Source: Bacillota bacterium (GTDB taxonomy: Bacteria > Bacillota > Clostridia > Acetivibrionales > DTU013). Taken from it: a DNA stretch of 64,000 bases. Under the pieces are notes generated by a model. The model was given only the letters and a program-made list of their open reading frames with translations, made no database searches and was not told where the DNA came from. A program made the translations under genes and the position numbers. Below, piece by piece: positions 44,001 to 59,660 of the stretch (position 1 is its first letter; each line of letters opens with the position of its first letter). Location of the stretch: positions 8,422-72,421 of the forward strand of contig JAEWQC010000006.1 in NCBI GenBank assembly GCA_023399355.1, read 5' to 3'.

Positions 44001-47000
44001 CAGCTCCGCTGCCGATAGAACCGGATGATGAGACGGCGGACTTCAAACCTGTGGCGGCTGCCACAACCAACTGTGTCCTGGCGGCATGGGAAAACCTGAA
44101 GGATGTTATGCCAGGGGACGCCAAGCTTGGAGATGCGCTTAAAAGTGAAGAGATCCGCGCCGGCTTTTATGATTCGGCGACGGGAAAATGGAACAGCCCC
44201 TACGACCTGACATCGGACAGCTACCTTGACCATTCGCCCCAAATAGCTGCGGGCGGTGGCAGCGGCATTCTGACCTGGGTCAAGAGCAAATCGGACAATT
44301 ACGATTCCGCCCTGAGCAATGCCTATTCGGCTAAAGATGAGATCATGTTCTCGAAATGGGACGGGAGCAGCTTCAGCAAACCGGACGTCATTGCTTCGCC
44401 CGACGGGATCGTCATTGATTCCTCCATTGCATATGATGGGACTAACGGAGCGTTCGCATGTACGCTGGACGGAGATAACGACCTTAGTACCACCGATGAC
44501 CGCGAGATTTATATCATGACGTACGACGGAACAAAGTGGAGCCCGCTCAGCCGGATGACAGATAATACCGTCAGGGACTCTTCACCCCAGGTTTGCATCG
44601 ATAAAAACGGGAAAGCTTTCCTTGCCTGGAGCGAAGACAAAAAGCTCATGTACGCGGCGGATGCGGGTTCGGATCAGCCTCAGCTCAAAACGGCTCTTGA
44701 GGATACGATCGTCACCGAGCCTCTCACAATGACCCTGAAAAGTGACGGCAGTATTGCTCTGATCTGCCCCGGCAAGTCGTCTGAAGGCGGACAGGAACTG
44801 TATATGATGACATATGACTTTGAATATGATGCCTGGAGTAACGAAATAGAGCTTACGTCGGATCAGGCAAACAACTACTCGCCCAGTTCGGTATTTATCG
44901 GCAATCAGCTTGTGACCGTCTACAACAGGGCGCAGGTGGTTGAGGAAACCAATCCTGCGGATGGGCAAACCTACCCGGCAGCGAGCGACTGTGCCGATCT
45001 TGTGATGTCCTCCGTAACACTCAGTCACGATCTGTCAGTTACATCTGCTGCAATTACGATGTCGGATAATAATCCGTATCCCGGAAGTGTCATTACCATC
45101 GGTGCAACGATAGAGAACAAGGGAATGTTCGCCGAACCGGGAGTTGAGGTTTCATTCTACTACGGAGATCCCGGCAAGGGCGGAACACTGATAAAAACGG
45201 TGACCGTTCCCGGCCCCGTCGTTCCGGGTGACGCGGCATATGCCTCGACCGAATGGGAAGTGCCTTCCGGCGGGACGGAAACCGAACTGTATGTTGTGGC
45301 GAATTATAAGGATAAATCAACCACGGACGGGAACCCAACGGACAATACCGCGGTCAGAAAGATCGTGAGTCCCGATCTCGAGATATCGGCGCTGAAATGT
45401 ACACCGGCAGGAGAAGGAAAATACGCTATTTCGGCAACAGTAACCAATATCGGCCGTTCGGATGTCGCAAATGCAACCGTCTCATTCAACCGCGGCGACC
45501 AGGCAGGCAGCCTGCAGGCTGTCGGAACGGCAGACACCGGAGCGCTGGGCAAGGGCGAGGCAAAGGATGTATTATACCTGTGGCCGGCGGACCCAGGCGT
45601 GTGGATAACGGAAGAAAACAGCTCCAATCCCGGCAAAGTGGATATTTTTGCTTCGGTTGAGGCAACGGGCGGTACGGCTGAGACGGAGCTTTCGAATAAT
45701 CTGTCGACGACAACTCTTGTAAGGAAAAGCCTGAACATACTGGCAACCGATCCGTCCAACTACGGAAAAAACGTCGGTATTGACAAGACTGTCAATATGA
45801 CCTTTGACAGTACAATCAAGAAAGGCGGCGCTTTTGAGAACATTACGCTGGCAGGTCCGGATAATATACCGGCAGCTGTCACAAAAACCATAAGCGAGGA
45901 TACGTTAACCATCAAACCGAATTCACCGCTTAAGTACGGCAGTACCTATACGCTCAGAATTCCAGCTTCTGCGGTCATTATTGCGGAGAGCGGCATATCC
46001 GGCAGCGAGTGTACAATCACTTTCAGCACGGAAACGAACCCCCAAGGCCCGGGTAATCCTGACAACCCGGGCAATCCAGGCGGGAATCCGGGCAATCCGG
46101 CTTCCGGCAACCCAGGTACGAACTCGGATAAGGATAACGGAACCAACACCGCCATCGTATCCGGGGCTTATAAAGGAACGGTTGAAGTGAAGACGGATGC
46201 CGGAAAGGGACAGGCGACAGCCATCCTTGAGGAGGCATTCCTTCGGCAATCAAAGGATTCTCTCTCCATACGGCTGCCCAAAATTGAAAAAGCCGTATCC
46301 TATGGTTTGCAGCTGCCATCGTCCGCCTTATTTGCGAAACCGGGAGACCGTAAGATTAAAATGATATGTGAAAACGGCTCTATCACGCTTCCATCCAATA
46401 TGCTTACGAAGGATCAAGCCGGGAGTCATGAGACTGTGTCTGTCACTATGACAAAAGTTAATGCCGGGAATCTGCCGGGCGAAGTTCAAAAGCTGGTTGG
46501 AAATAAGCCTGTTATTGAGCTGAAGCTGAAGGCTGACGATAAAATGATGGAATGGAGCAATCCCGATGCGCCTGTTACGGTGTCCATTCCATACAAGCCG
46601 ACTGCGGCGGAGCTGTCGGATCCCGATAAGATCGTGATCTGGTACATTGACGGTTCAGGCAGCCTTACTCCGGTTTTTGCCAGCTTTTATGACCCGGAGA
46701 CGGGAATGGTGACATTCAGGACAACCCACTTCAGCTATTATGCAGTAGCGTATGTAAAAAAGAGCTTTACGGACCTGAAAGGTTATTCCTGGGCAAAAGC
46801 TCCCATAGAGGCGCTGGCTGCCAGAGGAATCCTGAACGGCATGCCTAAAACCATGTATTATCCGGGAAAGAATATCACAAGAGCGGATTTCCTGTATATG
46901 CTCGTAAGAACGTTGGGGCTGAGCACCGGGTTCAAATCCAATTTCTCCGATGTAGACAAAAATGCATACTACTGGAACGAACTTGGTACCGCAAGACAGC

Positions 47001-47305
47001 TCGGCATTTCTCTCGGAAGCGGGAACAATCAATTCCGTCCGAATGACAAAATATCAAGACAGGACATGATGGTGCTGACCGTCCGTGCAATTGAGAAGCT
47101 CGGAGAAATGAAAACGCAAGGCGCATCGGATAATCTGGCTCAGTTCAGCGATAAAAAACTCCTTTCGGCATATGCAATCGACAGTGCGGAGTATGCAGTA
47201 AATGCAGGAATGATCAAAGGAAACAAAGGCCTTTTGAATCCGTTGGGAGGCTCGACCAGGGCTGAAGCGGCCGTCATGCTTTATCGATTGTTCAAATCAA
47301 GGTAA
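29039..47305 (+). CDS. giant (6,088 aa) SLH-anchored multidomain cell-surface protein
   Basis: A single uninterrupted 18,267-nt ORF with a GGGAG RBS. The N-terminal signal peptide is MKKRINRFIAVLLSFLVLFAYFPAFIVVHA/AEP. The internal RCC1, Ig-like, Asp-box, PKD and CARDB regions are listed below as separate features. Three C-terminal SLH domains follow. Confidence 0.9.
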   Translation: MKKRINRFIAVLLSFLVLFAYFPAFIVVHAAEPLLTVSECNEYKKLISSSLDYTIAISSDKRVVYWGSPTSPARNVPTDLENVRMVAAGYRFALALKDDGKVVAWGDNEFNQCQGNGLTDVKYITAGNSFALALKNDGTVVAWGANEGGQCDVPAGLSDVVAIEAGSNHALALKSDGTVIAWGANYTDWKQCDIPIDKIDPANTALPKIVALDAPWGHNLAVREDGSVVAWGNNEKLQATVPAGITNAVAASGSLWCSMVLMADGTVKEWGKTYSAMGISEPSGLPFVKAVSSQQDMSFALVENDSGYYKVIPWDGSGKKEEINLSVGPKIVSCALPAGGDKDGDNSYIDVSFNRGIYGDATGTSAVSASAFVLEYRKNEGSANSVTITSATRTDGTELQGGETTVRFHLAVNGTPSGQETIEIKPAYDSGNVPVYDGNGTMIEPSQTTGATFLNTTMLRFVSSTIDDANTYIDVVFNKGIYGDVQGKTGVSVSDFKFSFYRNDGSATGATLVSLTDKDFVSTTPGAETVRFNFSIDGTVNGKETIEIKPADGNSVFTSSGEAMQASRTTGRIPLSPPAPEIVGMELANDNSHLDITFNTGVYGDRDNITKAGFNPVTSGAIICHLQSFGGGATNVSISSFTRLDGITPLIGGETAVRLNLSFTGSPTGVEYFGIWVEHLYNSKGVFLGSENSTMIKLKALSPAIGLCSAAPDNEYIDVNFNMGVYGGVQGFDEKGRPTGVDKDDFKLEYVKGSGTTENVTIRAIGANTGSDPANPAVLKGGEKTVRVFLSLTNPATGGAGAETVKISPKNDESIYSEDKQPVPSSSSTGNVNLHASFPVIESYKLAADNSHIDVDFNLGVYGDSAHTLPVSAPNFSVNFYTYSYNGGRATVATIGAITRQDGSPLEAGDKNLRLRLNITGKPSGAETIAIYPSSANQIYNSMGKSILSGSSQRVPDTFLNPVPEILTGTLAANLSYMDVTFSCGVYGDAAHTAAVDADDFKIVFNKNTGGSATGVTIDSVKKTDTEDKDDAASELTGGETAFRFFLSIDGSQNGQETIRIMPADGNSVYSGAGNPMAQEQSTPSRNLTVGPPEITSAKLARDNSYIDINFSSSVYGDSIHSTGLNEEDFSLSVESNNGDVNRAHISSVRQIDGTTPPSGGEKALRLYLVTQKVVTDEKTNETMLVATSASGTEKIEVKPAGGSSIYSFSGTAMDAAQTTGKISLAEIPRIVSGVMAADYSYVDVTFSKGVYGGSNGRTPLSAGSFLLYFERNGGIATNVSIKAVRKASGTSLSSAPALTGGETTVRVFLSVLGAADGKEWIKILPAGARAIYDSSGRAMSDDKSTGMLYLKGSTLQIVSSFIAEDNSYVDVNFNVGVYGAADGDSPVTLNCFGIAATDGRIASVTKTDGEALTGGETTLRFHLNFPYVQYPGAAFAIVPASSSGGPKVYNANGAEMPLNQQTGMIPLNNVALDSSELSQNNAYIDLKFDMGVYGNNAQNTPIGPEDLALEFRQNGGTATGAAISSIRPADNAVEADAGTLKGGEATVRVFLKVSGNPDGKETVSLSTVPGSVIGSHILAGVLTTGAISMYSGAFKAVSAAMGDDNAYVDMTFSQGIYGDAAGRTPVDANDFAASFSGGPGSLTGVSIAAVGKPDGEKPGTASMLTGGEKTVRIFLSVSGTLSGSESLKIEPKTTSSIYPLHGAALSGENSSATVQMISNKPEILSSVMAAGSKYVDVIFNIGVYGTASSGPVTRDSFDCAFNANAGNGGNGKITVSVNSVRKPDSGSEAFASALTGGEKTLRFFLKINKAPGSTATDSIIPTGLETIVITPAQTIYSSTGQQLSTSASTGPVGLLAPEPEFGDCSASQQSGTDKKLQYIDVKFTTDVFGAADGSTPVDPSDFELLFARNSGNAERAEILSVCRPDPAEPAKDSELTGGTSAIRFYLKTYFGNGANAVEASTSGVETVVIKPKDNSIFNRSGQAMAVTKATDALKLANMFPRVVSARVGPGNGYVDVTFSTGIYGNSGSTGKAAYYSNFQAVFTRNGGAATNANINWAAKPDNSDRLLATTLVGGEETIRFFLTVTNVPSGVEMVEIVPASPQLRDADGLTLKAAQSTGRLRLVTPYPPQWSLSGSSEEAPGWMSDYRISTGNAHTLVVKNDGTVAAFGENSQGQANVPGTLSGVDSVAAGDTFSAALKKNGTLVGWGALKIPAGMTNVKMIAAGGSTLFALRADSSGEYISLVGDDYYKYDDDNDRNYYVEKLKLMDKDVPVKAISAGSDEHLLVLRNDGTVEAYDYNDRLTSDYYGQCSIPEGLKEVRAVSAGFGFSLALKKDGTVAGWGNVRLPTGGLVNVSAISSSLRGYCVLKTDGTAEVYDINGVKLINSGTAVLSGIIGVSAGADTYLFVSRDGTVDGLRDTGVFGYMEDIDTPADLNIYKHVLNGTISGNAFVTLELRDSTAVNAAKLGMYGGNGLRGITAADLKVEIVKGSQSLLGITITDVKKGSSIYEDAAAGDTAVRVMLRVAGVPDGTERFVIKPTTSFSVADASGNSIFASQPSNVIALDRGSEYELYSRRIDAGWSHTVAMKDTGYVFNWGDNTYGQAPAMLNRDNAVQVSAGYHHTVVLLHDGTVKEWGENYYGQLDMPGNVKNIMQISAGGYHTLALKSDGTVLAWGDDFYKQCTVPLGLFNVIAVSAGGHHSLALKSDGTVAAWGDDSFRQCSGMPSGLKEVVAVSAGDNFSLALKRDGTVVAWGNNDKGQCTVPSGLANIKAVSAGYRHALALKSDGTVVAWGDNSKGQCTVPSDLTGVFAVSAGAYHNAAIKSDGKIIAWGDNSAGQAAVPESGLPPKVVSAVMAEDNSYIDLQFNAGVYGSPDGTGPLKTGNFKVVFDGKSAGGATGVSISSVRKNDNPLESKASALTGGENTVRVFLTFSGVIKGVETVQLTQDSAKPIYDMYKVPIQNANLTPVFTLKLQKTGNDIMVDNISSGVGTKYEVVAIDSTDGKSAPVYDYVPSNNCYSISWEHELKTAGATKNADGFYESNNTMLIAGFYSKEKNHANQDITQVTFNSKPMKFLKTAAIGDMKLDLYYMLGKDFPTNPGKYKVTAYYRGSNNLLYGKAVSLTNVAQMAPENAASTLDDGTYWNMSTALETKTDHAMQVDFTATPNNNEVAMKTTNRDKAGAYVTNCNDSVYYKDWATISASVRSAEYPKEDISYELTPTYDTLPELPAGNKIAFVQDAGSSGNAAAGRQFTFTSGDDGATVTILSSPDGNSWTTSTCSLPAITYQGFTYTYFGKTEITDWAAYQDTASGTTRYVAIGNANVGRYKQDGSAEYETEEYTDEGGHPQTHRWTYETSIKVYLMSSDGEHWTSGYYPDFVFGNYENVKNGSLYTKFKEIVCNNNGLFVAYDNANVYYMIYSDTEWTLGKSFEKDSQGKVVNTQYNYLTGLFTRNNILVLTGRGLDDENLNIYWSTGGRDWKQAAVTYRDPKFYEYDKTARKTIWTYSRSFTGMTYAHDTFAASNEYTIAASQDGKNWSVYKSDKQGSDLVAFHDTFFRTVYYHTASGNACWLLSSDDLLDWQVEDKDFLLSEFTPEGAKKTLTANTVRNGFEAMTLELAAPEDGDVKVPVNSVLTISYTDELKQGADFKRISLTTAAGINVPAGLLLDGENGTMSILPKDDLSPITKYILTIPEGALINTTSMKANKLLRIAFTTGTSTLPEITGDNLGSAENPFDVDSPLNLCYSRDIAVNLQTLFDKITVAPKNNLSNKVQLDRRIEGTKLILTPAVPLQYTTAYMITIPDGAVKDLFGIEAGGKSIEFMTGADSKLPVVERTDPVDLGERIATANPICAYFSEAVTKGAGFGGITLRDIRSDTATEAEVTLKDEIVNGTTRTALIIQPAAELALHHTYRVTIPSDAVRDASNNTLASEYSFEFTEEIRKSYPVLVGSSPSNNATEVDFMGDIVLTYDRPIKMTDSFSLPGFVSIKSQDANHSGVVLFTARVEGSKLIITPNRTPKDTPYDALLYGWPYELRYTGECISDLYGNKDITDIHSILFTIESQKIESRYPAADGSDIPLNAGIRVMFGSRFDNAVKGANFADIRVSRMDVSGGKTTYTDIASHAVLSGNSLYISPEEDMSPLKTYAVEIPRGAVKGSGTGVNNYDAFSFTTGTDSSNTGSIEGPDALRTGNGLLEGAAANFKSVGYPEGTGFVWDFGDDATASGAAVSHMFTTRGEYNVMLVYTNSAGEPRTIRKAVSVLKRPDLSSVQLDATPSAPVAVPAGSSAEWVVSLRSGGQPLGKAPILVSRVYPVTENRPPEVLTTIETDSNGYASYTGTLPEGVSEYYVKFTYENSYNGVTVKKEIRRIMKSAVGKVEVSGYVINDRNVVQSGAAVKIGTTSVRTDNTGYYKITGLDVGTYTMLVSANMHYDSVTEISLAQKSLVKNITLTKRSPTGNPSVSTIYINNAAPAYGQNFYFLQGIDAPIAVHALIDWNGHDPGYVEFNLNGTVTRSTNFEFSLNAKNLKQGDQLLIACVTADGVRSAASNARINIIESLPREFPVDLKPTFVGNKYVIDQYIPLTGISTPYIDNIPLLSGGPISFLSQPARVTGFMGLDGTFTAVVGKGVDAKAISYAAQNNMLQKYLARQNASTQAEIDEINGRRSSSQFGSFEFSANLDANFNWNYIPDLGRWQYLTGDIALNVDTELYGKRSWGIKGIPVSAFLAGQFTLEMDASLKSTGSIGNYTSGYLDFSKIEIEISGGLDAFIASAGIYFAGGGKVRIDFPSADVKHYIYVKGYAKLKALLWSVNYPFLEYGWGDDYATGSKVSSLMYDKAAGLYDVKENELQEMSRDYINGQSGWEPYGTEITGSVPVSDDSASMPGSRASASANAASDSYSTASVPDNAVSMRSSAVTALSGTATATSNTAQMQSSPASASNSTTKTTLRSNTYPYTDQKLVPYDGGALMVLLEDDPGRTSLNRTRASYSIYNGSTWTAPLPIEPDDETADFKPVAAATTNCVLAAWENLKDVMPGDAKLGDALKSEEIRAGFYDSATGKWNSPYDLTSDSYLDHSPQIAAGGGSGILTWVKSKSDNYDSALSNAYSAKDEIMFSKWDGSSFSKPDVIASPDGIVIDSSIAYDGTNGAFACTLDGDNDLSTTDDREIYIMTYDGTKWSPLSRMTDNTVRDSSPQVCIDKNGKAFLAWSEDKKLMYAADAGSDQPQLKTALEDTIVTEPLTMTLKSDGSIALICPGKSSEGGQELYMMTYDFEYDAWSNEIELTSDQANNYSPSSVFIGNQLVTVYNRAQVVEETNPADGQTYPAASDCADLVMSSVTLSHDLSVTSAAITMSDNNPYPGSVITIGATIENKGMFAEPGVEVSFYYGDPGKGGTLIKTVTVPGPVVPGDAAYASTEWEVPSGGTETELYVVANYKDKSTTDGNPTDNTAVRKIVSPDLEISALKCTPAGEGKYAISATVTNIGRSDVANATVSFNRGDQAGSLQAVGTADTGALGKGEAKDVLYLWPADPGVWITEENSSNPGKVDIFASVEATGGTAETELSNNLSTTTLVRKSLNILATDPSNYGKNVGIDKTVNMTFDSTIKKGGAFENITLAGPDNIPAAVTKTISEDTLTIKPNSPLKYGSTYTLRIPASAVIIAESGISGSECTITFSTETNPQGPGNPDNPGNPGGNPGNPASGNPGTNSDKDNGTNTAIVSGAYKGTVEVKTDAGKGQATAILEEAFLRQSKDSLSIRLPKIEKAVSYGLQLPSSALFAKPGDRKIKMICENGSITLPSNMLTKDQAGSHETVSVTMTKVNAGNLPGEVQKLVGNKPVIELKLKADDKMMEWSNPDAPVTVSIPYKPTAAELSDPDKIVIWYIDGSGSLTPVFASFYDPETGMVTFRTTHFSYYAVAYVKKSFTDLKGYSWAKAPIEALAARGILNGMPKTMYYPGKNITRADFLYMLVRTLGLSTGFKSNFSDVDKNAYYWNELGTARQLGISLGSGNNQFRPNDKISRQDMMVLTVRAIEKLGEMKTQGASDNLAQFSDKKLLSAYAIDSAEYAVNAGMIKGNKGLLNPLGGSTRAEAAVMLYRLFKSR
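29192..29993 (+). repeat. RCC1-repeat beta-propeller cluster 1 (inside the giant ORF)
   Basis: About seven blades of the form ..AAGxxFALALKxDGxVVAWGxNxxGQCxVPxGL.., for example VAAGYRFALALKDDGKVVAWGDNEFNQC and ITAGNSFALALKNDGTVVAWGANEGGQCDVPAGL. Confidence 0.75.
30020..35410 (+). repeat. 14 tandem copies of an unassigned ~115-135-aa repeat domain (inside the giant ORF)
   Basis: Each unit contains three conserved blocks: (D/N)NxY(I/V)D(V/I/L)xF(N/S)xG(V/I)YG; then L(T/K)GGExx(V/I/L)R(V/F)xL; then GxE(T/S)(I/V)x(I/V)xP; and ends ...TTGxxxL. The anchors read in order: DNSYIDVSF, ANTYIDVVF, DNSHLDITF, DNEYIDVNF, DNSHIDVDF, NLSYMDVTF, DNSYIDINF, DYSYVDVTF, DNSYVDVNF, NNAYIDLKF, DNAYVDMTF, GSKYVDVIF, KLQYIDVKF, GNGYVDVTF. 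Confidence 0.8.
35477..36287 (+). repeat. RCC1-like propeller cluster 2 (more degenerate)
   Basis: ISTGNAHTLVVKNDGTVAAFGENSQGQANVPG, VAAGDTFSAALKKNGTLVGWG, VSAGFGFSLALKKDGTVAGWG and similar blades. Confidence 0.6.
36752..37562 (+). repeat. RCC1-repeat propeller cluster 3 (best conserved; blades also similar at the DNA level)
   Basis: Seven blades, for example VSAGGHHSLALKSDGTVAAWGDDSFRQC, VSAGDNFSLALKRDGTVVAWGNNDKGQCTVPSGL and VSAGYRHALALKSDGTVVAWGDNSKGQCTVPSDL. The nucleotide strings around 37129-37200, 37250-37320 and 37369-37440 are visibly alike. Confidence 0.8.
38831..39778 (+). repeat. Asp-box (BNR, SxDxGxxW) repeat region, probable beta-propeller
   Basis: Five Asp-box-like motifs: SSPDGNSW (38831), SSDGEHW (39119), STGGRDW (39446), SQDGKNW (39617) and SSDDLLDW (39746). 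They are spaced about 40-110 codons apart. Confidence 0.6.
39871..41550 (+). repeat. five tandem SbsA/Big_5-like Ig domains
   Basis: Units of about 110 aa with the pattern P.dg..vpvns.l.i.f......g..f..i.l......v.....l.g..l.i.P...L...T.Y.v.IP.GAv.d..gn......f.F.T. Examples are ...YILTIPEGAL..., ...YMITIPDGAVKD..., ...YRVTIPSDAVRD... and ...YAVEIPRGAVKG.... Confidence 0.6.
41560..41805 (+). other. PKD domain
   Basis: FVWDFGDDATASGAAVSHMFTTRGEYNVMLVYTNSAGE (WDFGDG-type PKD signature). Confidence 0.7.
42139..42375 (+). other. carboxypeptidase-regulatory-like (CarboxypepD_reg) beta-sandwich domain
   Basis: VEVSGYVINDRNVVQSGAAVKIGTTSVRTDNTGYYKITGLDVGTYTMLVSANMHY. Confidence 0.6.
45028..45730 (+). 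repeat. two CARDB-like domains
   Basis: DLSVTSAAITMSDNNPYPGSVITIGATIENKGMFAEPGVEVSFYYGDP...AYASTEWEVP and DLEISALKCTPAGEGKYAISATVTNIGRSDVANATVSFNRGD.... Confidence 0.6.
46766..47302 (+). repeat. three S-layer homology (SLH) domains (cell-wall anchor)
   Basis: FTDLKGYSWAKAPIEALAARGILNGM...ITRADFLYMLVRTL; FSDVDKNAYYWNELGTARQLGISLGSGNNQFRPNDKISRQDMMVLTVRA; FSDKKLLSAYAIDSAEYAVNAGMIKGNKGLLNPLGGSTRAEAAVMLYRLF. Confidence 0.85.
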
Positions 47306-47344
47306 TGCGTCAGCCTGCAACCTGACGGGAAATTGGGAAAGCCG

Positions 47345-47382
47345 TGAGGCCGCTGAAACATAGCGGCTTCAGGGCTTTGTTG
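47345..47382 (+). terminator. probable intrinsic terminator of the giant ORF
   Basis: TGAGGCCGCT (47345-54) pairs with AGCGGCTTCA (47362-71): 10 bp with one G-U pair and a 7-nt loop. The tail is GGGCTTTGTTG. It starts 40 nt after the stop codon. Confidence 0.45.
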
Positions 47383-47430
47383 TAACATAAATAAACCCCC
47401 GGCTCTGCCGGGGGAGACAAAGAGCTTTAG

Positions 47431-47766
47431 CTTCAAATAGATAAAAAAAACCTCCAATGTAAGAATTACCACATAGTATTTGCAGCGAAGTATCGCAGGC
47501 AAGTGATATTTGGGAAGATAAAGCAAGACATAGGAAAAATGCTAAGGGAGCTGTGCGAAAGAAAAGGAATAGAGATAATAGAAGCGGAGTGTTACAAAGA
47601 CCATGTACATATGCTCGTATGGATACCACCCAAATACAGCGTATCAGAGATTGTGGGTTATCTAAAAGGAAAAAGCTCACTGATGATATTTGATCGGTTC
47701 GCCAATTTAAAGTACAAATATGGCAACCGACATTTCTGGTGTAAGGGAAAAATATTAAGTATGTAA
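47431..47766 (+). mobile_element. tnpA: decayed IS200/IS605-family tnpA (Y1/HUH transposase) remnant
   Basis: The frame open from 47431 reads ..NLQCKNYHIVFAAKYRRQVIFGKIKQDIGKMLRELCERKGIEIIEAECYKDHVHMLVWIPPKYSVSEIVGYLKGKSSLMIFDRFANLKYKYGNRHFWCKGKILSM*. The HUH motif (HVHMLV) is present. No start codon exists for the first ~10 residues, and the C-terminal helix that carries the catalytic Tyr is missing. A GC-rich hairpin CCCCCGGC-tct-GCCGGGGG lies at 47396-47414, just upstream. Confidence 0.75.
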
Positions 47767-48355
47767 TACTTCAATGTGCTGCAATGCAGGGCATTTATAT
47801 CATAAATATGGAAGAGACGACAAATATGTTTTTTATCTTGAAACTCATTTGGAAAAGGGAAGTGAAACATATGTAGCGCTGATAAATTATTATAAGGAGC
47901 ATGATAATTTTGACGGGGCATGCCGAGTGGCAGAACAGGCGCTGGAAAAATGCAAAGATGATCTGACGGAGGCTTTTATATATCTCCTTGTTGATGCGGA
48001 AAAGAGAGAAGATAAAGACAAGTGCAAAAAAATTGTATAGCAGTGCGAAGAGAAGGCGATTGGCAGATATTAACCGAATAGATCAAGTGTTAAGTGATTT
48101 TAATTCAGGTAGTTATACTTGAAAAAAGATATTGTATGGGACTTGGCTTCAAATGACGAATTGATTTTATGACAAATTGAGAAGTATATATTTGACAGAA
48201 TTACACTTATAACTCTTTACACAGGTGAATATTTCAGATAGAATAAATGCGAACAAATGTTTGGCACAGAGAAAAAAATGAAACAATCACAAATTGTGAC
48301 CGTTAGGTATTTGGATATAGATCATCAATAAATCAAAGCGGAGGAAATAAACCTT

Positions 48356-48707
48356 ATGGCAAAGAAAAAGAATAACGAAATCACCATCCGTTCCAGTGCA
48401 GCAGAATACTTGACATACGTTGCAGCGACAGGAGATGATCCTCAAAGCTTTGAAATGCACTATAAGGACGAAAACATCTGGCTTACGCAGAAAATGCTAG
48501 CAACACTATACAATGTAGAGGTTCATACTATAAACGAGCATATTTCTAAGATTTATACGGATAGTGAACTTGTACAGGAAGCAACTATTCGGAATAATTG
48601 CTAAAGCTCATGCTGAAAGTGAGTTTGAGAAGTATCGCATTATCCAGGACAGGCTGTTTCAATCTGACTTTGATAAATTAATTGAGGGCATAAGGAATGA
48701 AGAATAA
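48356..48707 (+). pseudogene. RhuM-family gene remnant (N- and C-terminal pieces joined by deletion and frameshift)
   Basis: 48356-48604 encodes ...FEMHYKDENIWLTQKMLATLYNVEVHTINEHISKIYTDSELVQEATIRNNC*, which resembles a RhuM N-terminus. From 48600, in the +1 frame, the sequence continues AKAHAESEFEKYRIIQDRLFQSDFDKLIEGIRNEE*, the typical RhuM C-terminus. The central bulk of the protein is absent. Confidence 0.55.
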
Positions 48708-48724
48708 CATTTAAAGGCGTGGCA

Positions 48725-48817
48725 GCGGCAAAGTAAAGTACCGAGAAAACGGCAAGTAAAGTGAGGAAATCCGGCAATGAAATGTCAGAGATTTCGGCAA
48801 TGGAAGTGAGGATTTAG
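48725..48817. repeat. four degenerate ~23-bp tandem direct repeats (CGGCAA-N-GNAAGTGAGGAAAT-like)
   Basis: GCGGCAAAGTAAAGTACCGAGAAAA / CGGCAAGTAAAGTGAGGAAATC / CGGCAATGAAATGTCAGAGATTT / CGGCAATGGAAGTGAGGATTTAG, read directly from 48725-48817. Confidence 0.5.
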
Positions 48818-49067
48818 CCGAAACAGAACCCAATTGGTGATAGGATTTTTGTATCTTACCTCAAAAGGGGGACAAATGATTGGGGGATTTCGAAATGTAT
48901 TCAAAGATTCAGCAAGAAAAGGAACAGGGCTTTTCCCGAGAAACAGCAGCACGTCATCTGCCCTGTCTCCAATCGTCCCTTGTCTCCCCTGGCTCCAGAA
49001 AATAGGAGAATAATGAAAATTGTCGAAACATGTCGAGTTATAAGATATATGGCATATAAGTAAACCA

Positions 49068-49096
49068 TTGACATTTGACTTGGCGAAGATTATAAT
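49068..49096 (+). promoter_or_regulatory. perfect sigma-A/sigma-70 consensus promoter (TTGACA-17 nt-TATAAT)
   Basis: TTGACA at 49068-73, a 17-nt spacer TTTGACTTGGCGAAGAT, and TATAAT at 49091-96. It points toward loaP, whose ATG is at 49600. Confidence 0.55.
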
Positions 49097-49325
49097 ATAA
49101 ATCATCACATATTTTCCAATAATATGATGGTTTATGCACAAAAATGAAAGAAAAGTCTAGTAATCGTTTAAAAGCCAGATTAAGTGGAAACTCTCATAAA
49201 GAAGCTAAAAGAGCAGGATAGATGATGTTTCGATATATTGGTGGATTGATGAGAACATATAGCAATTATTGTGTATCTCATTTTTTGAAGGAAAGAAATT
49301 ACTCAAAAAAATTGTTATATAGTAA

Positions 49326-49506
49326 AAGTACTTATCGGCGGTTAATCTCTGGCGGGTCACGTTAATCGCTGATAAGTATTATATGATAAAAAATCGATTC
49401 AACCTACTATTTAGAATATGTCAGATGACGAAGATTTGTCGTTGGCTGATTTCAAGTACTTATTGGAAGTTGGGTGGCGGGTCGCTTGATGGAAGATAAG
49501 GATTAT
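49326..49506 (+). promoter_or_regulatory. duplicated ~55-nt hairpin element in the loaP leader
   Basis: Copy 1 (49326-49385) is AAGTACTTATCGGCGGTTAATCTCTGGCGGGTCACGTTAATCGCTGATAAGTATTAT. Its arms AGTACTTATCGGCG and CGCTGATAAGTATT form 14 bp including two G-U pairs. Copy 2 (49454-49506) is AAGTACTTATTGGAAGTTGGGTGGCGGGTCGCTTGATGGAAGATAAGGATTAT. Both copies share the apical TGGCGGGTC(A/G)C. Confidence 0.45.
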
Positions 49507-49599
49507 ACAGAGGTTAACCGCTAGTGTGCCAATTGGAAAAGTATGGCAGATAAAAGGGCGGAGCTGTATCTTGGCAGCATAGGCAGTGGAGGGGAACCA

Positions 49600-50148
49600 A
49601 TGTCTTTCTGGTATATATTTTGGGTCTTGACGGGTCATGAGAGAAAAATTGAAAACAGGATACAGAGTCAGTTGTGTAATGAGGACATCGTACCTTTTAT
49701 TCCCATGAGGGAAGTACTTTTTAAAAGAGCCGGTAAGGTGAAGAAAGAACTTAATATTGCGTTTCCGGGATACTTGTTTATCGAATCAGATTTGGAAAGC
49801 GTAGAGTTTTTACAACGCACACATCATTTTGTGAGAATATCAAAGGACATCATCGGGATCTTAAAATACAGTAATTCAAATGAGATTGCTGTCAGAGAAG
49901 AAGAGCGTGCAGCATTCTTGAGCTTATGTAATGTTAATCATTGTGTTGAGTCCTCAATGGGCTTTATTGAAGGAGATAAGTTTTACATTGAAAGCGGTCC
50001 TTTGGTTGGTATGGAAAACATTATAAAGGAGATTAACAGAAAAAAGATGGAAGCTTCTTTTGATATGGAGTTTCTGGGCGGAACAAGGCGGTTCACCGTA
50101 GGGCTTGAGTTATTGAGAAAAATAGAAATGGACAGTTCGATAATATAG
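49600..50148 (+). CDS. loaP: LoaP-type NusG paralog (processive antiterminator associated with polyketide clusters)
   Basis: ORF 49543-50148; ATG 49600 lies 5 nt after GGAGGGG. The NGN-like N-terminus is FWYIFWVLTGHERKIENRI...AFPGYLFIES. The KOW-like C-terminus is GDKFYIESGPLVGMENIIKEINRKK. The 182-aa protein lies directly upstream of an NRPS/PKS cluster. Confidence 0.7.
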   Translation: MSFWYIFWVLTGHERKIENRIQSQLCNEDIVPFIPMREVLFKRAGKVKKELNIAFPGYLFIESDLESVEFLQRTHHFVRISKDIIGILKYSNSNEIAVREEERAAFLSLCNVNHCVESSMGFIEGDKFYIESGPLVGMENIIKEINRKKMEASFDMEFLGGTRRFTVGLELLRKIEMDSSII

Positions 50149-50441
50149 ATAGGTGCTTGATGTGGAGAGTGTGCAATTTGGTGATTTCACAGTATATATT
50201 ATCAAAAATTAATGCAAATACAATTCTATGTCAATGTGAAATTCAAAATTTTAAATCTATCACACGAAAAACTTTGGATATATCGTGTGCAGCACCTATC
50301 AATCTACACACAAATTTACCATTAATGGTTGGCTTGAGTCATTCGCTGAGGGAAAAAGATATCAATTTTTTAATTTTACACTAAAGTAGCGATGTAAGAG
50401 TAATAATGGAGTTGTCGCGGGATGGCAGCACTGTGTAAAAG

Positions 50442-52010
50442 GTGAGTGAGAATATTATGAAAAACACATATGAGATCATTAATAACACGGAATATCCATA
50501 TGATCATTCAAAAACAGTGATTGACTATTTTGATCAGCAAGCTATGGAACATCCGGAAAATAAAGCTTTATATTTTTTGAAGGATTATATGACATATGGT
50601 GCCTTCCGGCAAAAAGTAAATCAACTTGCTAATTATTTGATCAGCTTGAATTTAAAGAATGCAGTTATTGGTGTTTTAATGGACAAATCATTTGATATGA
50701 TGATCGCCATATACGGTATACTGAAATCAGGTAACATATATATGCCGATTTCTCAGGATTATCCGGATCAAAGAATTTTATTTGTCTTAGAGGACAGTAA
50801 TGCTGCCATCGTTATCGTAAACAAAGATTCCTGCATACAATTAAGTAACATAAAATCGAACGTAAATTATTTAGATATTGAATATGAAAAGATCCAGGTT
50901 CAAAGCAATGAATGCAAAGCTCGTTGCCTTCCAAATGATTTGGCATATATTATTTATACATCAGGTACTACCGGCAATCCAAAAGGTGTTATGGTAGCCC
51001 ATCATTCTTTAATGAATCGCTTAAATTGGATGCAGCATACATACCGATTAACTGAAAATGATGTATTATTGCAAAAAACGTCGATATCGTTTGATGTTTC
51101 TTTATGGGAATTATTTTGGTGGCCTATGGCAGGAGCAAGTTTGTGTCTGCTTGCAAAAGGGCTTGAAAAATTTCCAATGGCATTAACTGAAATAATAGAA
51201 AAGTTTTCAATCTCAGTCATTCATTTTTGCCCTTCTTTGCTTAATTCGTTTTTAAATTATGTTATTGAAAACAAGAAAGAAGAATCAGTTAAATCGATAA
51301 GGCAAGTTATTTGCAGTGGCGAAGAATTACTCAAGTCGCATGTGGAGAAATTCAAGACAAGCTTGTATTTCAATAATAATACGCAGCTTGCAAATTTATA
51401 TGGGCCGACTGAGGCGACTATCGATGTCACTTTTTATAACTGCGATTTTACATTTATTCCGAACAAAATACCTATTGGCAAGCCCATCCATAATACTAGG
51501 GTTTATGTCATCGGGGACAATGATAAATTGATGCCCATTGGTGAAGAAGGTGAATTGTGTCTTTCGGGAGTTTGCCTGGCAAAAGGATACATAAATAATA
51601 AGGAATTAACTGAAAAACAATTTGTCTTATCTGGCATTGTAAAAGATACGTATTATAAAACGGGTGATTTGGTTAAGCTATTGCCTGATATGAATTTGGT
51701 ATTTCTTGGAAGAATAGATGAACAAGTAAAAATCAGGGGTTACAGGATTGAACTTGGAGAAATAGAAACTATTTTGGGAAAATACAATGGAATTCATGAA
51801 TGTTGTGTCATTCACAAAAAGGTTGATGATCTTAATTATTTAGTGGCATTTATAGTGGCAGATGAAAAATTGGACGAGAAAAGTTTGAGAGAATATGTAC
51901 ATCAATTTTTACCATACTATTGTGTTCCTAATAAGTATATTTATGTTGATAAACTGCCTGTGAATATGAGTGGAAAAGCTGATAAAAAGGCATTGCTCTC
52001 TATGATATAA
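50442..52010 (+). CDS. stand-alone adenylation enzyme (NRPS A domain; hand-derived specificity code resembles Ser)
   Basis: Core motifs: YTSGTTGNPKGV (A3), FDVSLWE (A4), NLYGPTEAT (A5), YKTGDL (A7), GRIDEQVKIRGYRIELGEIE (A8), NMSGKADKK (A10). The start may be ATG 50457. No C or T domain is present. Confidence 0.85.
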   Translation: MSENIMKNTYEIINNTEYPYDHSKTVIDYFDQQAMEHPENKALYFLKDYMTYGAFRQKVNQLANYLISLNLKNAVIGVLMDKSFDMMIAIYGILKSGNIYMPISQDYPDQRILFVLEDSNAAIVIVNKDSCIQLSNIKSNVNYLDIEYEKIQVQSNECKARCLPNDLAYIIYTSGTTGNPKGVMVAHHSLMNRLNWMQHTYRLTENDVLLQKTSISFDVSLWELFWWPMAGASLCLLAKGLEKFPMALTEIIEKFSISVIHFCPSLLNSFLNYVIENKKEESVKSIRQVICSGEELLKSHVEKFKTSLYFNNNTQLANLYGPTEATIDVTFYNCDFTFIPNKIPIGKPIHNTRVYVIGDNDKLMPIGEEGELCLSGVCLAKGYINNKELTEKQFVLSGIVKDTYYKTGDLVKLLPDMNLVFLGRIDEQVKIRGYRIELGEIETILGKYNGIHECCVIHKKVDDLNYLVAFIVADEKLDEKSLREYVHQFLPYYCVPNKYIYVDKLPVNMSGKADKKALLSMI

Positions 52011-52037
52011 ACAGACTAATAAGTGCGGGGATGTTTC

Positions 52038-52985
52038 ATGAATATTTCTCTTGTTTACCCGGGAGTCGGGTCGCAATATACCGGCATGGGTAAAGCGCAT
52101 TATGATCGGTTTAATATAGTCCGGGATACTTTTGATGAAGTGAGTGAGATTGCTAAAACCAATATAGCTACTATTTGTTTTGATAATGCTCGGAAAGAAG
52201 ACTTAAATATTCTTGCAAATGCCCAAATATGCATATTCACATTAAGTATTGCTTATCATAGATTATTGAATTTATATTTATCGATATCTCCCCGTTTTTG
52301 TTGCGGTTATAGTCTTGGAGAATATTCTGCTTTGTGCAGCTCAGGCGCGCTCAGTTTACATGACGCAGTAAAGCTAATAGAGTTGCGCTCAAAAATATTA
52401 CAGAAGATAACAGATTTAAAAATTGGAAGTATGCTCTGGATCGTTGAACTAGATGTAAATATGACGGAACAAATTTGTAAAGACTTGCGTGATGACGGAT
52501 ATTACATATATGTTTCAGGATACAATTCGCAAAAACAAACTGCCGTTTCAGGAGATAATACCTCAATAAAAAAAGCGATAGAGTTATTTGAGGAATTTGG
52601 TGCGTTGGTTATTCCTTTGGATTTATCGGGTCCATATCACTGTTCATTAATGCATGAAGCATTTGAATATATGAAAGACGTAACAGAAAAATATACATTT
52701 AAAAAATTATCGGATCCGGTCATAGCCAATTGGAATGCGTGTTTATATAAGGATGGACAATACTCTCAATACCTGATGAATCAATTGGTTCACCCCATAT
52801 ATTGGATGCAGACCATACAGAAGATATACAGCAGCAATCCGGATTTAATAATTGAGGTGGGACCTAAAGAAGTATTAACATATATTTCAAAAAAGAACTA
52901 TGCAGACGTGCATGCTTTATCAATAGATAAAATAGAAAATTTTGAGAGAATATGTGATCTTTGTGAAAATAATTGTATGCATTAA
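52038..52985 (+). CDS. discrete acyltransferase (FabD-like malonyl-CoA:ACP transacylase; trans-AT candidate)
   Basis: ORF 52023-52985; start ATG 52038. LVYPGVGSQYTGMG, active-site GYSLGEYSAL (GxSxG), and SGPYHCSLM. Confidence 0.8.
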   Translation: MNISLVYPGVGSQYTGMGKAHYDRFNIVRDTFDEVSEIAKTNIATICFDNARKEDLNILANAQICIFTLSIAYHRLLNLYLSISPRFCCGYSLGEYSALCSSGALSLHDAVKLIELRSKILQKITDLKIGSMLWIVELDVNMTEQICKDLRDDGYYIYVSGYNSQKQTAVSGDNTSIKKAIELFEEFGALVIPLDLSGPYHCSLMHEAFEYMKDVTEKYTFKKLSDPVIANWNACLYKDGQYSQYLMNQLVHPIYWMQTIQKIYSSNPDLIIEVGPKEVLTYISKKNYADVHALSIDKIENFERICDLCENNCMH

Positions 52986-53703
52986 GGGAATTGCTGTTTC
53001 TAAAATTAGTAAAAATGATAGTGATGATGAGTACAAAGTAGGCACAAAAGATATGTATGCTTTGAAAACAGCATTGGCATTAAAAGAAAGATATCCTTTA
53101 GTTATAGAAGTTATTTGTATGGCTCCTCACTCTTTATGTGATATTTTAAAAAGTCTATATATTTATGATATAAATAAGATTTATTTAGCAGCGGATAGCT
53201 TGTTTGCCGGCGCTGATACGTTTGCCACATCATTTGTCCTGCATAAGATGATAGAGAAAATAGGAATGGCAGATATCATATTATGCGGCAAGTCCAGTGA
53301 TGACAGCGGAACGGCGCAAATTGGTCCAAGTTTAGCTGAACGATTGAAATATGAGCTTATCAACAATATATCATCAATTGAAATCGATGGACATCATATT
53401 AAATGCGAAAGTAGTTCGGAAAAAATAAAATATATGATTGAAACAGAGCAATCAATAGTTGGCACAATTGATTGCCCACCTATTGATAGCACATACCCAT
53501 CGTTGAGAAATATTCTCGGACAAAAGAAAGATGTTACTATATTTAGTGCAAATGATTTAGGAATATCAATAAATCAGATACAATCAAAGACAAAAGTAGT
53601 AAAGTTATTTTCTTATGAAAAATCTGAAATCGGTGAGTTCATTACAGGAGATATTTCTGATATGGCAATAAAGTTTATTGATATTATTAAGTTATACAAT
53701 TAA
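52963..53703 (+). CDS. etfB: electron transfer flavoprotein beta subunit (EtfB-like)
   Basis: ORF 52942-53703; GTG 52963 gives VKIIVCIKGIA.... DMYALKTALALKE, GADTFATSFVLHKMI and DDSGTAQIGPSLAERL match the EtfB pattern. It overlaps the AT stop by 23 nt. Confidence 0.75.
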   Translation: MKIIVCIKGIAVSKISKNDSDDEYKVGTKDMYALKTALALKERYPLVIEVICMAPHSLCDILKSLYIYDINKIYLAADSLFAGADTFATSFVLHKMIEKIGMADIILCGKSSDDSGTAQIGPSLAERLKYELINNISSIEIDGHHIKCESSSEKIKYMIETEQSIVGTIDCPPIDSTYPSLRNILGQKKDVTIFSANDLGISINQIQSKTKVVKLFSYEKSEIGEFITGDISDMAIKFIDIIKLYN

Positions 53704-53708
53704 CCGTT

Positions 53709-54692
53709 ATGCAGCAAGAAGTAAGCATGTCATTTAAGAATGCAAGGGTTTGGGTATTTGGAGAACATGCCGATGGTGTGTTGTCCGGCATTTCACATCA
53801 GCTTTTAGGCATTGCATGCAAGCTTGCAAAAAAAATAGAATCAAAAATTATTATTGTATTGGTTGAATCAAATGAGACAATACATCGAGAGTGTATAGGT
53901 TATGGAGCAGACTATGTTATCAATGTATCTTCATATACCAATATTGATATTTTAGTTGACCTTGCTGACAAAATGCGGTTGATTGAAGAACCGGATATAG
54001 TTATATGCGGATCTACTGAATGGGGGATAAATCTTGCTCCAAGATTAGCTGTAAAATTAGGTGCAGGTTTGACGGCACATTGTGTCAACCTTGAGATATG
54101 CAGTGAAACTGGTCGTTTATTACAGACGCGGCCTACATCCTTTAATAATTTATTTGCGACAATTATCTCCACAAGTAAAATACAAATGGCGACTATAAAA
54201 CCAAATCTGTTTTCTCCCAGTATTATTGATCAAAATAAAAAAGGACAGGTTATAGAATATCAGTCTTCGGAGTTTAAAAATGGTTACACTCTGCAAAAAA
54301 TTATCCAATGTATTGAAGAGAATGCTGCGGATACTAACAGAATCATAATAGGAGTTGGAAATGGTATAGTAGATTATCAGGCATTTAAACTGGTTGAGTC
54401 TTTCGCCAATCTTATTCATGCGCCTATCTATGGATCACGGGAAGCTGTTGCTAAAGGATTGGTCGGGTTTGATCGACAGATTGGCATTACTGGTAAAACA
54501 ATTAATCCGAAATTATATATTGCAATAGGGATATCCGGCTCGCATAACCATTTGCTCGGGATTTCAAAAACTACGAAAATTGTTGCTATAAACACAGACA
54601 TTGGATCAGAAATGATAAAAGCAGCCAATTATAAAATTATATCGGATGCAAAGGATTTTCTTAAATTGATCCTTCAAAAAATTGTCGTTTAA
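53709..54692 (+). CDS. etfA: electron transfer flavoprotein alpha subunit (EtfA-like)
   Basis: 327 aa; the start may be ATG 53727. VWVFGEH..., and the C-terminal FAD region PKLYIAIGISGSHNHLLGISKTTKIVAINTDIGSEMIKAANYKIISD. Confidence 0.75.
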   Translation: MQQEVSMSFKNARVWVFGEHADGVLSGISHQLLGIACKLAKKIESKIIIVLVESNETIHRECIGYGADYVINVSSYTNIDILVDLADKMRLIEEPDIVICGSTEWGINLAPRLAVKLGAGLTAHCVNLEICSETGRLLQTRPTSFNNLFATIISTSKIQMATIKPNLFSPSIIDQNKKGQVIEYQSSEFKNGYTLQKIIQCIEENAADTNRIIIGVGNGIVDYQAFKLVESFANLIHAPIYGSREAVAKGLVGFDRQIGITGKTINPKLYIAIGISGSHNHLLGISKTTKIVAINTDIGSEMIKAANYKIISDAKDFLKLILQKIVV

Positions 54693-54718
54693 ATATAATA
54701 AAACAATACGAATAAAGA

Positions 54719-55573
54719 GTGATGAATAACATGGAATATAGTATTATCGAGATAGTACTGCGTTTTAATGGGAAATATTCACCAGGATATCAATATACTC
54801 CTGCTGAAAAAAACTCTTTACCGGTAATTTTACTTTGTCATGGAAATTATCAGGAAGGAAAGGATTCGAGAATTATACTGTCTATAGCAGAAAATTTAAC
54901 TAAAAAGGGTTTTATTGTAGTGACATTTGATAACCTTTGTTATAATAAAGCATGGAAACCCGATGATGGTGAAATTCACAGTTCTGAAGAAATTGATATG
55001 CGATGGGCGGCATTTGCTGCTATTACATATATCCGAAATAATTACATTGAAAAGAAAATAATTGTTATCGGACATTCTATGGGGGCTTCAATTGCGCTAT
55101 CAGTCAGTGCTTTGAGTGATTATATCAATGAAACTATTGCAATATCTCCAACAAGAATATCCGCATTTATTTTTGATGATAATGAATTAAATGATTTTTG
55201 GATGCAAAATAAAGACATTATTGAAACAAAAATTGATAAAAACGTTACGCGTTCAATTCGTTTAGATATGATGGCGGAAAATTACATCCCCTTTTTAAAT
55301 AAAAAGAGAACTCTATTTATCTGTGGATATAAAGAACGATATTATAATTATAAAAAATGGATTAAATCCCTGGCAGAGTCAATAGGAGAAAGTTGTGAAT
55401 CAATAATCATTCCCAATGCAGATCATTATTTTGGAATAACTCCCGGCAATGAAAATCAGGAAGTTTTTAACAATTTTATGAATAGTATATTTACATGGAT
55501 AAATAAAAAATACGGAGAGATTAATATAAACCTGGTGAATGAACAAAAGACTGTGAATGAAACTTTGAAATGA
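54719..55573 (+). CDS. alpha/beta-fold hydrolase
   Basis: 284 aa. LLCHGNY..., nucleophile elbow IGHSMGASIAL, and a late NADHYF (His). Confidence 0.7.
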   Translation: MMNNMEYSIIEIVLRFNGKYSPGYQYTPAEKNSLPVILLCHGNYQEGKDSRIILSIAENLTKKGFIVVTFDNLCYNKAWKPDDGEIHSSEEIDMRWAAFAAITYIRNNYIEKKIIVIGHSMGASIALSVSALSDYINETIAISPTRISAFIFDDNELNDFWMQNKDIIETKIDKNVTRSIRLDMMAENYIPFLNKKRTLFICGYKERYYNYKKWIKSLAESIGESCESIIIPNADHYFGITPGNENQEVFNNFMNSIFTWINKKYGEININLVNEQKTVNETLK

Positions 55574-55649
55574 TATAAAACGATACAATGTCTGCAGCGG
55601 GATTTATTGCTATGTGCAAAGACTCTCTTGAGCTTCGGAGAATTATGTT

Positions 55650-56264: not shown

Positions 56265-56376
56265 TACGGTGCTGTATCTGGTCAAACCGAATGCTATTTT
56301 CCGCCGTGCAAACTGCCCACTCGTTTTATCATTGTATAGAAATCAATGAAAATATACCATAATTTGGAGGGTAACT

Positions 56377-56613: not shown

Positions 56614-56805
56614 GCCATAGTATTGTTAGATGGCCGGCTATTATTGCCAGTACATTCTCTGCAAATACTATTTTATGGAGATGATTCTTATGAAAACCAA
56701 CTAAAAAGGGTCTGCTCGTCATAGTTTCGACTGAAGATGTGAGATACTGTGAAAACATGAATAAATCAGAGAAATTCCAAGGCTATTTAAGGAGGTAAAT
56801 AATTC

Positions 56806-58217: not shown

Positions 58218-58222
58218 CGGTC

Positions 58223-59647: not shown

Positions 59648-59660
59648 AAGAAGGGTATTT

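Follow-up and report, generated by a model that had tools for sequence, protein, structure and literature searches.

A LoaP cassette with a conserved leader RNA and a second hairpin variant upstream of loaP at the edge of a low-GC NRPS-type gene cluster

The window studied here is a 64-kb stretch (64,000 nt) of contig JAEWQC010000006.1 from a Bacillota bacterium, in which the gene of a NusG paralog, loaP, is preceded by a leader of about 500 nt and followed on the same strand by a biosynthetic gene cluster. We found that the last ~150 nt of this leader (49454-49599) are a conserved LoaP leader RNA, and that its hairpin (copy 2) has a paralogous, non-equivalent counterpart (copy 1) further upstream. 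We consider it probable that the locus is a LoaP cassette whose recruitment RNA lies 5' of loaP, and that LoaP would act both on the transcript that encodes it and on the cluster that follows. It is a known system in a variant arrangement.

To our knowledge, recruitment by RNA is known for no NusG-like factor other than LoaP. It is said (Goodson et al. 2017) to promote read-through of long polyketide operons in Firmicutes, and the work on dfn and mln, two operons of B. velezensis, is reportedly that of Goodson 2017 and Elghondakly 2021 and 2024, together with Jermain 2025 (PMC12691694). Until now, the recognised LoaP determinant has been a small UNCG hairpin, known from two Bacillus operons. 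A larger conserved leader is indicated by the present locus together with about 20 relatives; it has non-UNCG loops, an extra covarying helix and a box beside the place where the dfn pause maps.

The NusG paralog is a member of the LoaP family

The gene and its ribosome-binding site are placed as follows:

49600-50148, + strand: loaP, a NusG paralog of 182 aa with an NGN domain and a KOW-like beta-barrel (stop codon 50146-48)
49588-49594, + strand: Shine-Dalgarno sequence of loaP, GGAGGGG, which aligns with GGGGGAG of the homologues

The start codon ATG at 49600 is favoured because all 175-aa homologues open at the equivalent MS.WY residues. Only one family hidden Markov model (HMM) scored above its cut-off: NCBIfam antiterm_LoaP (NF033641) reached 149.9 bits against a cut-off of 125, over residues 4-174 of 182, whereas the UpxY model gave 51.9 bits (cut-off 100), the NusG model 45.2 bits (135.7) and the RfaH models 33.1 bits (124) and 28.6 bits (144.5). 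The protein is therefore a LoaP rather than a housekeeping NusG, an RfaH or a UpxY, as the initial annotation of this DNA had held.

The NGN domain was matched by Pfam NusG (E 4.5e-13), and Pfam KOW had no match in the 182-aa protein. The nearest solved relative by sequence was the LoaP-RNA complex of T. pseudethanolicus (PDB 8f5g, E 4.6e-18). An AlphaFold2 model (pLDDT 82) has five C-terminal strands at residues 119-171; it superposed on the whole chain of 8f5g with a TM score of 0.73-0.79, while NusG and RfaH chains gave at most 0.48. This whole-chain superposition indicates that a KOW-type barrel is present, and both domains proposed earlier from the translation are thus supported, one by Pfam and the other by the model. 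The T. pseudethanolicus LoaP is the best sequence and fold match over both domains, but its identity to the protein here is only about 25% (24-26%) and its RNA-contact residues are partly conserved.

A conserved RNA element lies directly upstream of loaP

We compared the DNA around LoaP homologues in public assemblies (loci with L numbers below). Wherever the LoaP of a fetched locus was at least 40% identical and the 5' flank was intact, the same element stood directly 5' of loaP. Besides the window, 18 loci have it there, once each, with LoaP identities of 40-83%, and it is absent from the 60+ loci with more distant paralogs. The distance to the gene is nearly fixed, the hairpin starting 139-149 nt before the ATG in twelve aligned leaders. 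Covariance model R1 was built from the orthologous hairpins of 19 other loci, with copy 1 excluded, and was run over both strands of the 64 kb with filters off; R2 is the covariance model of the 3' module. In the window the element spans ~120 nt (49454-49574), opens with the copy 2 hairpin and has the following parts:

49454-49516, + strand: leader hairpin copy 2, in the orthologous position (R1 74.6 bits, E 3e-19)
49459-64/49495-500, + strand: helix P1 of copy 2 (RNAalifold, covariation)
49465-68/49491-94, + strand: purine internal loop GGAA/GGAA of copy 2
49469-76/49483-90, + strand: G.U-rich helix P2 of copy 2 (RNAalifold, covariation)
49477-82, + strand: apical loop GCGGGU of copy 2
49501-49574, + strand: leader 3' module, including GGAUUAUACAG (R2 76.7 bits, E 2e-17)
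49521-28, + strand: conserved CUAGUGUG between the hairpin and P3
49525-30/49545-50, + strand: helix P3 (covariation)
49552-67, + strand: box AAAAGGGCGGAGCUGU, nearly invariant across 18 loci

The consensus thus reads AAGCACUUAU, P2 with its loop, GAUGGAAGAUAAGGAUCAUACAGUGAUUA..CGCUAGUGU, hairpin P3, GACGAAAGGGCGAAGCUGU and the Shine-Dalgarno sequence; the AAGGGCGAAGCUGU box is near-invariant and is followed by the loaP ribosome-binding site. The R2 match was the sole significant one in the window.

P1, P2 and P3 were all predicted by RNAalifold, and the alignment shows that pairing has been maintained. Across P1, the internal loop and P2, 11 of 18 pairs have compensatory changes, against 6.4±1.2 in shuffled alignments (0 of 500 as many). 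Overall the hairpin has 11-13 compensatory pairs versus 6-7 in shuffles, and the signal collapsed when the partners were slid by 1-3 columns. P3 is 95% paired; 21 cells are changed on both sides, against 6.7±2.2 in shuffles (0 of 500), with GC<->AU exchanges in 8 of 18 sequences. In the subtype to which the window belongs, 5 of the 8 P2 pairs are G.U, so this structure exists only in the RNA of the + strand.

P2 of copy 2 (49469-49490) is unusual in its composition: if each A in the Watson-Crick complement of its 3' strand is replaced by G and each C by U, the result is its 5' strand. This wobble-rich helix is retained across the subtype, and its 3' strand CGCUUGA is dfn-like (compare CACGUUGA).

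One comparison locus carries the element twice. This is L016, a contig of a metagenome-assembled genome, where hairpin, GGUAGCGUG and box occur again as a complete element at 610-740, 4 kb 5' of loaP. There the element heads a different operon, in front of an ABC-exporter-like open reading frame (ORF) starting at 745. It is independent support for a cis-acting target site and parallels the two LoaP-controlled leaders of Bacillus, dfn and mln.

Rfam 15 contained no family matching 49000-50500 at gathering thresholds, and permissive settings gave only chance-level matches (E >3). An exact-pattern scan of metagenomes for the hairpin returned 2 loci only, the motif being rare or the pattern too strict. 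As far as the LoaP papers considered show, the extended architecture is undescribed. An earlier suggestion, that the leader be compared with Rfam and with published hairpins, thus gave a divided outcome, with no Rfam family and a dfn leader collinear with the element (see below).

The leader is preceded by a perfect promoter

Two features mark the 5' end of the leader:

49068-49096, + strand: consensus sigma-A/sigma-70 promoter TTGACA-17-TATAAT (12/12 match)
49097-49135, + strand: 5'-terminal stem-loop AAAUCAUCACAUAU...AUAUGAUGGUUU (-9.4 kcal/mol, z -3.0)

A perfect promoter about 500 nt 5' of loaP had been noticed from the letters alone, and this stands: it is the sole perfect TTGACA-17-TATAAT in the window (0.01 expected from shuffles), and 504 nt separate its end from the loaP ATG. 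L006 has an equally perfect promoter at the matching position and keeps the stem-loop sequence right behind it. The stem-loop may serve as a 5' stabiliser.

The leader hairpin is duplicated, and the copies differ

Upstream of the conserved element, a further hairpin and a weaker repeat were found:

49326-49392, + strand: leader hairpin copy 1 (R1 51.1 bits, E 3e-12), with loop UGGCGGGU and flanks AAUCUC...CACGUU
49188-49288, + strand: probable decayed third repeat unit, copy 0 (weak matches)

Two paralogous leader elements had been proposed, and R1 confirmed them. Since the model was built without copy 1 and still recovers it along with copy 2, the duplication is real; all else in the window scored no better than E 0.38. 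Over 87 sources, R1 gave one match per locus of the LoaP clade and none in loci with more distant paralogs. Among 21 strong matches, the window is the sole locus with two in one leader.

The folding energy of copy 1 is -25.8 kcal/mol (z -6.8), a value that none of 200 shuffles equalled. Its arms, 49329-45 and 49362-78, form 17 RNA pairs, two of them G.U, and the uninterrupted helix is 17-20 bp long. The stem of 14 bp described earlier does exist, but its length was understated. Both copies also contain the apical TGGCGGGTC(A/G)C that had been pointed out, as TGGCGGGTCAC at 49350-60 and TGGCGGGTCGC at 49475-85; this 11-mer alone is insignificant, with 2 occurrences seen versus 1.4 expected when one mismatch is allowed.

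The copies are not equivalent: the full conserved element is found in copy 2 only, and copy 1 is a different hairpin variant, one that is without the conserved GGAA/GGAA internal loop. Its best pairwise match was the L013 variant (79% identity, score 81), against a score of 52.5 with copy 2, and its uninterrupted helix and loop flanks fit the L013/L014 variant better than copy 2. R2 was also used to look for paralogs of the 3' module in the downstream part of unit 1 and in the element after loaP, and neither was detected. Since R2 matches 49501-49574 only, the downstream modules of unit 1 have decayed.

Copy 0 was matched by R1 at 13.3 bits (E 0.38, 49188-49268) and by R2 at 10.1 bits (E 1.3), and it ends in a terminator-like hairpin (49248-49281) followed by U6 (49282-49287), at -9.9 kcal/mol (z -2.0). 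Its identity as a decayed repeat unit is suggestive only. L006 is without the stretch 49188-49288, and its hairpin-1 position is degenerate (16 bits). What the window leader and L006 have in common is the perfect promoter, the 5' stem-loop and hairpin-1 in degenerate form.

A long-range pairing was also noticed in this region. GCGGUUAAUCUCUG (49338-51) can pair with CAGAGGUUAACCGC (49508-21) over 14 bp with one G.U, so that copy 1's 5' arm would be tied to sequence behind copy 2, in competition with the copy 1 hairpin. The segment 49508-21 also resembles the 3' arm of the long-hairpin variant, and the pairing may simply reflect shared ancestry with such an arm.

The element is collinear with the Bacillus dfn leader

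For B. velezensis, it is reported that a small hairpin of the UNCG type, present in the leaders of dfn and mln, is required by LoaP (PMC12691694). Pausing of polymerase after the hairpin and before the terminator is helpful, and the action of LoaP is to antagonise NusA (PMC12691694). A 10-nt deletion, CACCTATTAA, in the dfn leader abolishes antitermination, for which the authors give no explanation, and the oligo of the dfn hairpin, GGCCAAUCGCGUCUUCGGCACGUUGCC, is listed in the supplement along with a template of the leader (PMC12691694).

The stem of the dfn oligo, AAUCGC-N8-CACGUU, is matched at 12 of 12 positions by L014 and at 11 of 12 by copy 1 (AAUCUC-N8-CACGUU). In copy 2 the 3' strand alone is recognisable (CGCUUGA), and the 5' strand makes G.U pairs. 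By MAFFT and a profile HMM, the dfn leader is collinear with the family, the matched blocks running in the order AAGCAC, P1, P2, GGAUUAUA, UAGUG, a hairpin in the position of P3, and an AAGGG.GAAG box. In P1, CCUAUU/AAUAGG of dfn stands against CUUAUU/GAUAAG; the dfn row holds all six pairs, with one double change. The effect of the dfn deletion may be explained by this alignment, because CACCTATTAA removes the 5' strand of P1. The box aligns with dfn AAGGGAGAAGUGGUG, directly 5' of the mapped (bracketed) dfn pause.

The locus thus resembles dfn and mln in having a LoaP-family NusG paralog beside a secondary-metabolite cluster on the same strand, and a long leader with a hairpin whose stem in copy 1 agrees with AAUCGC...CACGUU at 11 of 12 positions, among flanking blocks in the same order. 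It differs from them in several respects. The leader lies 5' of loaP here, and between loaP and the target operon there. The apical loop is G-rich instead of UNCG, the hairpin is in tandem duplicate, a strong terminator is missing from the rest of the leader, the presumed target is an NRPS-type cluster, and the residues aligned with E40/R41 are F/K.

With RfaH/ops and UpxY the locus shares a specialised NusG paralog and a leader-encoded recruitment signal, and with UpxY also the position as first gene of its own operon. Unlike in those systems, where recruitment goes via non-template DNA, the signal here would be a covarying RNA structure, and the HMM scores lie far below both cut-offs. The conserved C(U/G)UAG(U/C)GUG (49521-49528) resembles the RfaH ops element GGCGGTAGnnTG: of its 10 specified bases, L016 matches 8 and the window 7. 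At 4900-4912 of L016, CGGTAGCGTG equals ops positions 3-12. The sequence might be a pause or a non-template-strand signal. CGCUAGUGUG may be called ops-like on this resemblance.

Proposed mechanism and its alternatives

In the mechanism that we propose, the consensus sigma-A promoter would drive the ~500-nt leader, and the NGN and KOW domains of LoaP would bind the nascent hairpin or hairpins, by analogy with B. velezensis dfn. LoaP would then enter the elongation complex, which a pause near the P3/box module may assist, and would antagonise NusA-stimulated intrinsic termination and pausing, and polymerase would read through loaP and >13 kb of biosynthetic genes. With a recruitment RNA upstream of loaP, the circuit should be positively autoregulated: basal read-through would produce LoaP, which would give more full-length transcription. 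Copy 1, the second hairpin, contributed by a partial duplication upstream, is very stable and more like the dfn hairpin. We infer the RNA binding, the NusA antagonism, the autoregulatory loop and the overridden sites from the Bacillus systems.

The leader hairpins are the best candidates for the recruitment site. That they might be so had been suggested before, and the fixed distance to loaP across the clade, the covariation and the alignment with dfn now point the same way. Several observations weigh against the proposed mechanism. The UNCG tetraloop is absent, the predicted loops being GCGGGU in copy 2 and UGGC within UGGCGGGU in copy 1, and the fold of copy 2 is unremarkable (-11.6 kcal/mol, z -1.8). 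The profile-HMM match to dfn is weak, at 6.5 bits, a score reached by 13 of 3000 dinucleotide shuffles (hmmsearch). Local pairwise comparison with dfn gave z 3.2-3.4 for L013/L014 and <2 for the other family members tested, and nhmmer, run with its filters off, still found no match to the dfn leader. When the hairpin region was aligned globally with dfn, z reached ~5-7 against mononucleotide shuffles. The machine-read dfn template and the oligo table disagree at several bases. The RNA-contact residues E40-R41 of the T. pseudethanolicus and B. velezensis LoaPs, contacts taken here from the mutants named in PMC12691694, align with F41-K42 here. No protein-RNA covariation was seen at these positions, F-(K/R) occurring in all clade members with any hairpin type. 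Finally, a canonical intrinsic terminator was not found between the hairpins and the cluster.

We weighed three other explanations. The leader could be a LoaP-independent cis-regulator of loaP, either a small-molecule riboswitch or a switch of translation, with partners exchanged among the AAGGG box, a downstream pyrimidine stretch and the Shine-Dalgarno sequence; LoaP would in that case act elsewhere. The element always stands directly before the loaP ribosome-binding site, its near-invariant single-stranded AAGGGCGAAGCUGU box and conserved internal loop resemble ligand- or protein-binding surfaces, and no Rfam family matches the leader. We nevertheless think this improbable, since the element is collinear with the dfn leader, whose hairpin binds LoaP, and in L016 it also precedes a gene other than loaP; moreover, no expression platform or terminator was found, and pairing of the box with the anti-Shine-Dalgarno stretch had no RNAalifold support. 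Far less probable still is that the inverted repeats work as DNA, serving as operators at which a dimeric protein represses or activates the strong promoter. Read as DNA, copy 1 is nearly palindromic, and so is 49508-21 with its GGTTAACC, but the sites lie 230-420 nt downstream of the promoter, the P1/P2 pairing leans on strand-specific G.U pairs that would be senseless for duplex DNA, and the covariation preserves pairing, not sequence.

A more serious alternative, although we still judge it unlikely, is that copy 2 alone is functional and that copy 1, like copy 0, is a relic of tandem duplication or of recombination between cassettes, at most a generic stable hairpin (for example a pause, an RNase III site or a stabiliser) rather than another site for LoaP. 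The uniqueness of the window's two strong matches would fit this, as would the decay of the 3' modules of unit 1 beyond detection by R2, the near-perfect ~20-bp duplex left after loss of the GGAA/GGAA internal loop, the merely degenerate hairpin at the copy 1 position of L006, and the transposases that flank cassettes in several loci. Against it, copy 1 retains both a dfn-like AAUC.C...CACGUU stem and the G-rich loop of copy 2, and it resembles the sole hairpin of L013/L014. With these features and its R1 score, copy 1 would be expected to bind a LoaP.

The recruitment reading may extend beyond this locus. It is conceivable, at somewhat less than an even chance in our estimate, that the ~150-nt element represents an undescribed structured "LoaP leader" RNA family reaching from Bacillus dfn to uncultured Clostridia, made up of P1, an internal loop of purines, P2, a loop that is either G-rich or UNCG, UAGYGUG with its likeness to ops, the covarying P3 and the invariant AAGGGCGAAGCUGU box. 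If so, the published small hairpin would be only the tip of the element, P1 would explain why the 10-nt deletion is lethal to dfn antitermination, and P3 with the box would be a pause and loading signal. The tandem hairpins of two types 5' of loaP would then form a cooperative positive-feedback switch on silent clusters. The extended leader offers concrete mutations for probing LoaP loading, the order promoter-leader-loaP could be used as a search signature for LoaP-controlled, probably silent clusters in uncultured Clostridia, and the cassette could serve as a portable read-through module in heterologous expression.

The gap after loaP and the search for terminators

Structures in the gap behind loaP had also been put forward as the recruitment site or as terminators. 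The complementarities, 50261-67 with 50283-89 and 50148-57 with 50291-300, are present, but the claim did not hold, since they are not above chance, not conserved and not terminator-like. Shuffled sequence folds as well as the 306-nt gap (z -0.61) and as the 50255-50315 stem (50261-67/50283-89; z -1.2); the partners of both stems are missing in the most similar gap sequences, those of L011 and L004. Neither R1 nor R2 had a match in the gap. Terminator prediction between loaP and the first biosynthetic gene, which had been recommended, gave no intrinsic-terminator-like site (GC-rich hairpin and U-tract) in 50149-50441. Two other features of the gap are conserved:

50163-50200, + strand: conserved post-loaP element GGAGAGUGUGCAAUUUGGUGAUUUCACAGUAU (L003-L007, L011, L016, L089)
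50285-50311, + strand: hairpin GUGUGCAG...CUACACAC, common to the L011 gap

The first contains the post-stop motif GUAGAGAGURUGAAAUU.GGCG.UUC(A/G)CAGUUUA common to these loci. A short hairpin, rich in A and U, with a G-rich loop and a tail rich in U, can be drawn for it; folding of the window copy is weak (z +0.6) and covariation is sparse. As a guess, it could be a terminator or pause of the NusA type, and a weak one, or else another site for a protein. At the place of the second, L011 has GUGUGUAG...CUACACAC, within a homologous stretch that continues through ~50420, and this conserved pairing competes with the 50261-67/50283-89 stem. In L011 the homologous stretch runs into the start of a different gene, which indicates that the gap is a mosaic and that the cassette has apparently been joined to different clusters. 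At 50405-50428 there is a 7-codon mini-ORF, ATGGCAGCACTGTGTAAAAGGTGA, with its own GGAG. Its counterpart in L011 is the beginning of a full-length gene, and it has the look of a gene-replacement remnant at the junction of cassette and cluster.

When 49097-64000 was scanned for terminators by folding energy, the intergenic gaps held nothing canonical apart from 49248-87, in the leader at the end of copy 0, and a poor site at 56608-56646. Together with 50163-200, the sites 49248-87 and 56608-46 are our candidates for those that LoaP would override.

The cassette opens a low-GC island

The surroundings of the cassette contain the following features:

47503-47766: fragment of an IS200-type Y1 transposase, near the GC drop
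50442-62783, + strand: co-directional NRPS-type (non-ribosomal peptide synthetase) biosynthetic cluster (Pfam matches), the presumed antitermination target

GC content falls abruptly from ~50% to ~33% at roughly 48 kb (window ~47300-49000). This drop and the transposase fragment mark the edge of an acquired island in which the loaP cassette comes first. The cassette thus sits at the 5' edge of a low-GC NRPS-type cluster that is horizontally acquired and peptide-antibiotic-like. Pfam matches in the cluster comprise an AMP-binding adenylation enzyme, an acyltransferase, the beta and alpha subunits of electron transfer flavoprotein, an alpha/beta hydrolase, thymidylate-kinase-like and NTP_transf_5 proteins, an acyl-CoA dehydrogenase and a C-A-T NRPS module. 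The long polyketide operon assumed in the initial annotation is contradicted by this set, which is that of an NRPS-type cluster. In the fetched loci, homologous loaP genes stand 5' of various biosynthetic clusters, and transposases flank the cassettes in several of them. Inside the cluster, two gaps, 56265-56805 (541 nt) and 57829-58531 (703 nt), hold no ORF of at least 150 aa and, between them, one poor terminator-like hairpin, that at 56608-56646.

Two further observations were made outside the island. A 1036-aa ORF (24262-27372) has a c-di-GMP-I riboswitch just 5' of it (24129-24211, + strand; RF01051, 69.3 bits, E 1.6e-11). Directly 5' of the low-GC island lies a single ORF of 6088 aa (29039-47305, + strand) for a giant cell-surface protein, with RCC1-like repeats in N-terminal and internal positions, many repeated immunoglobulin-like modules and an SLH-like C-terminal region.

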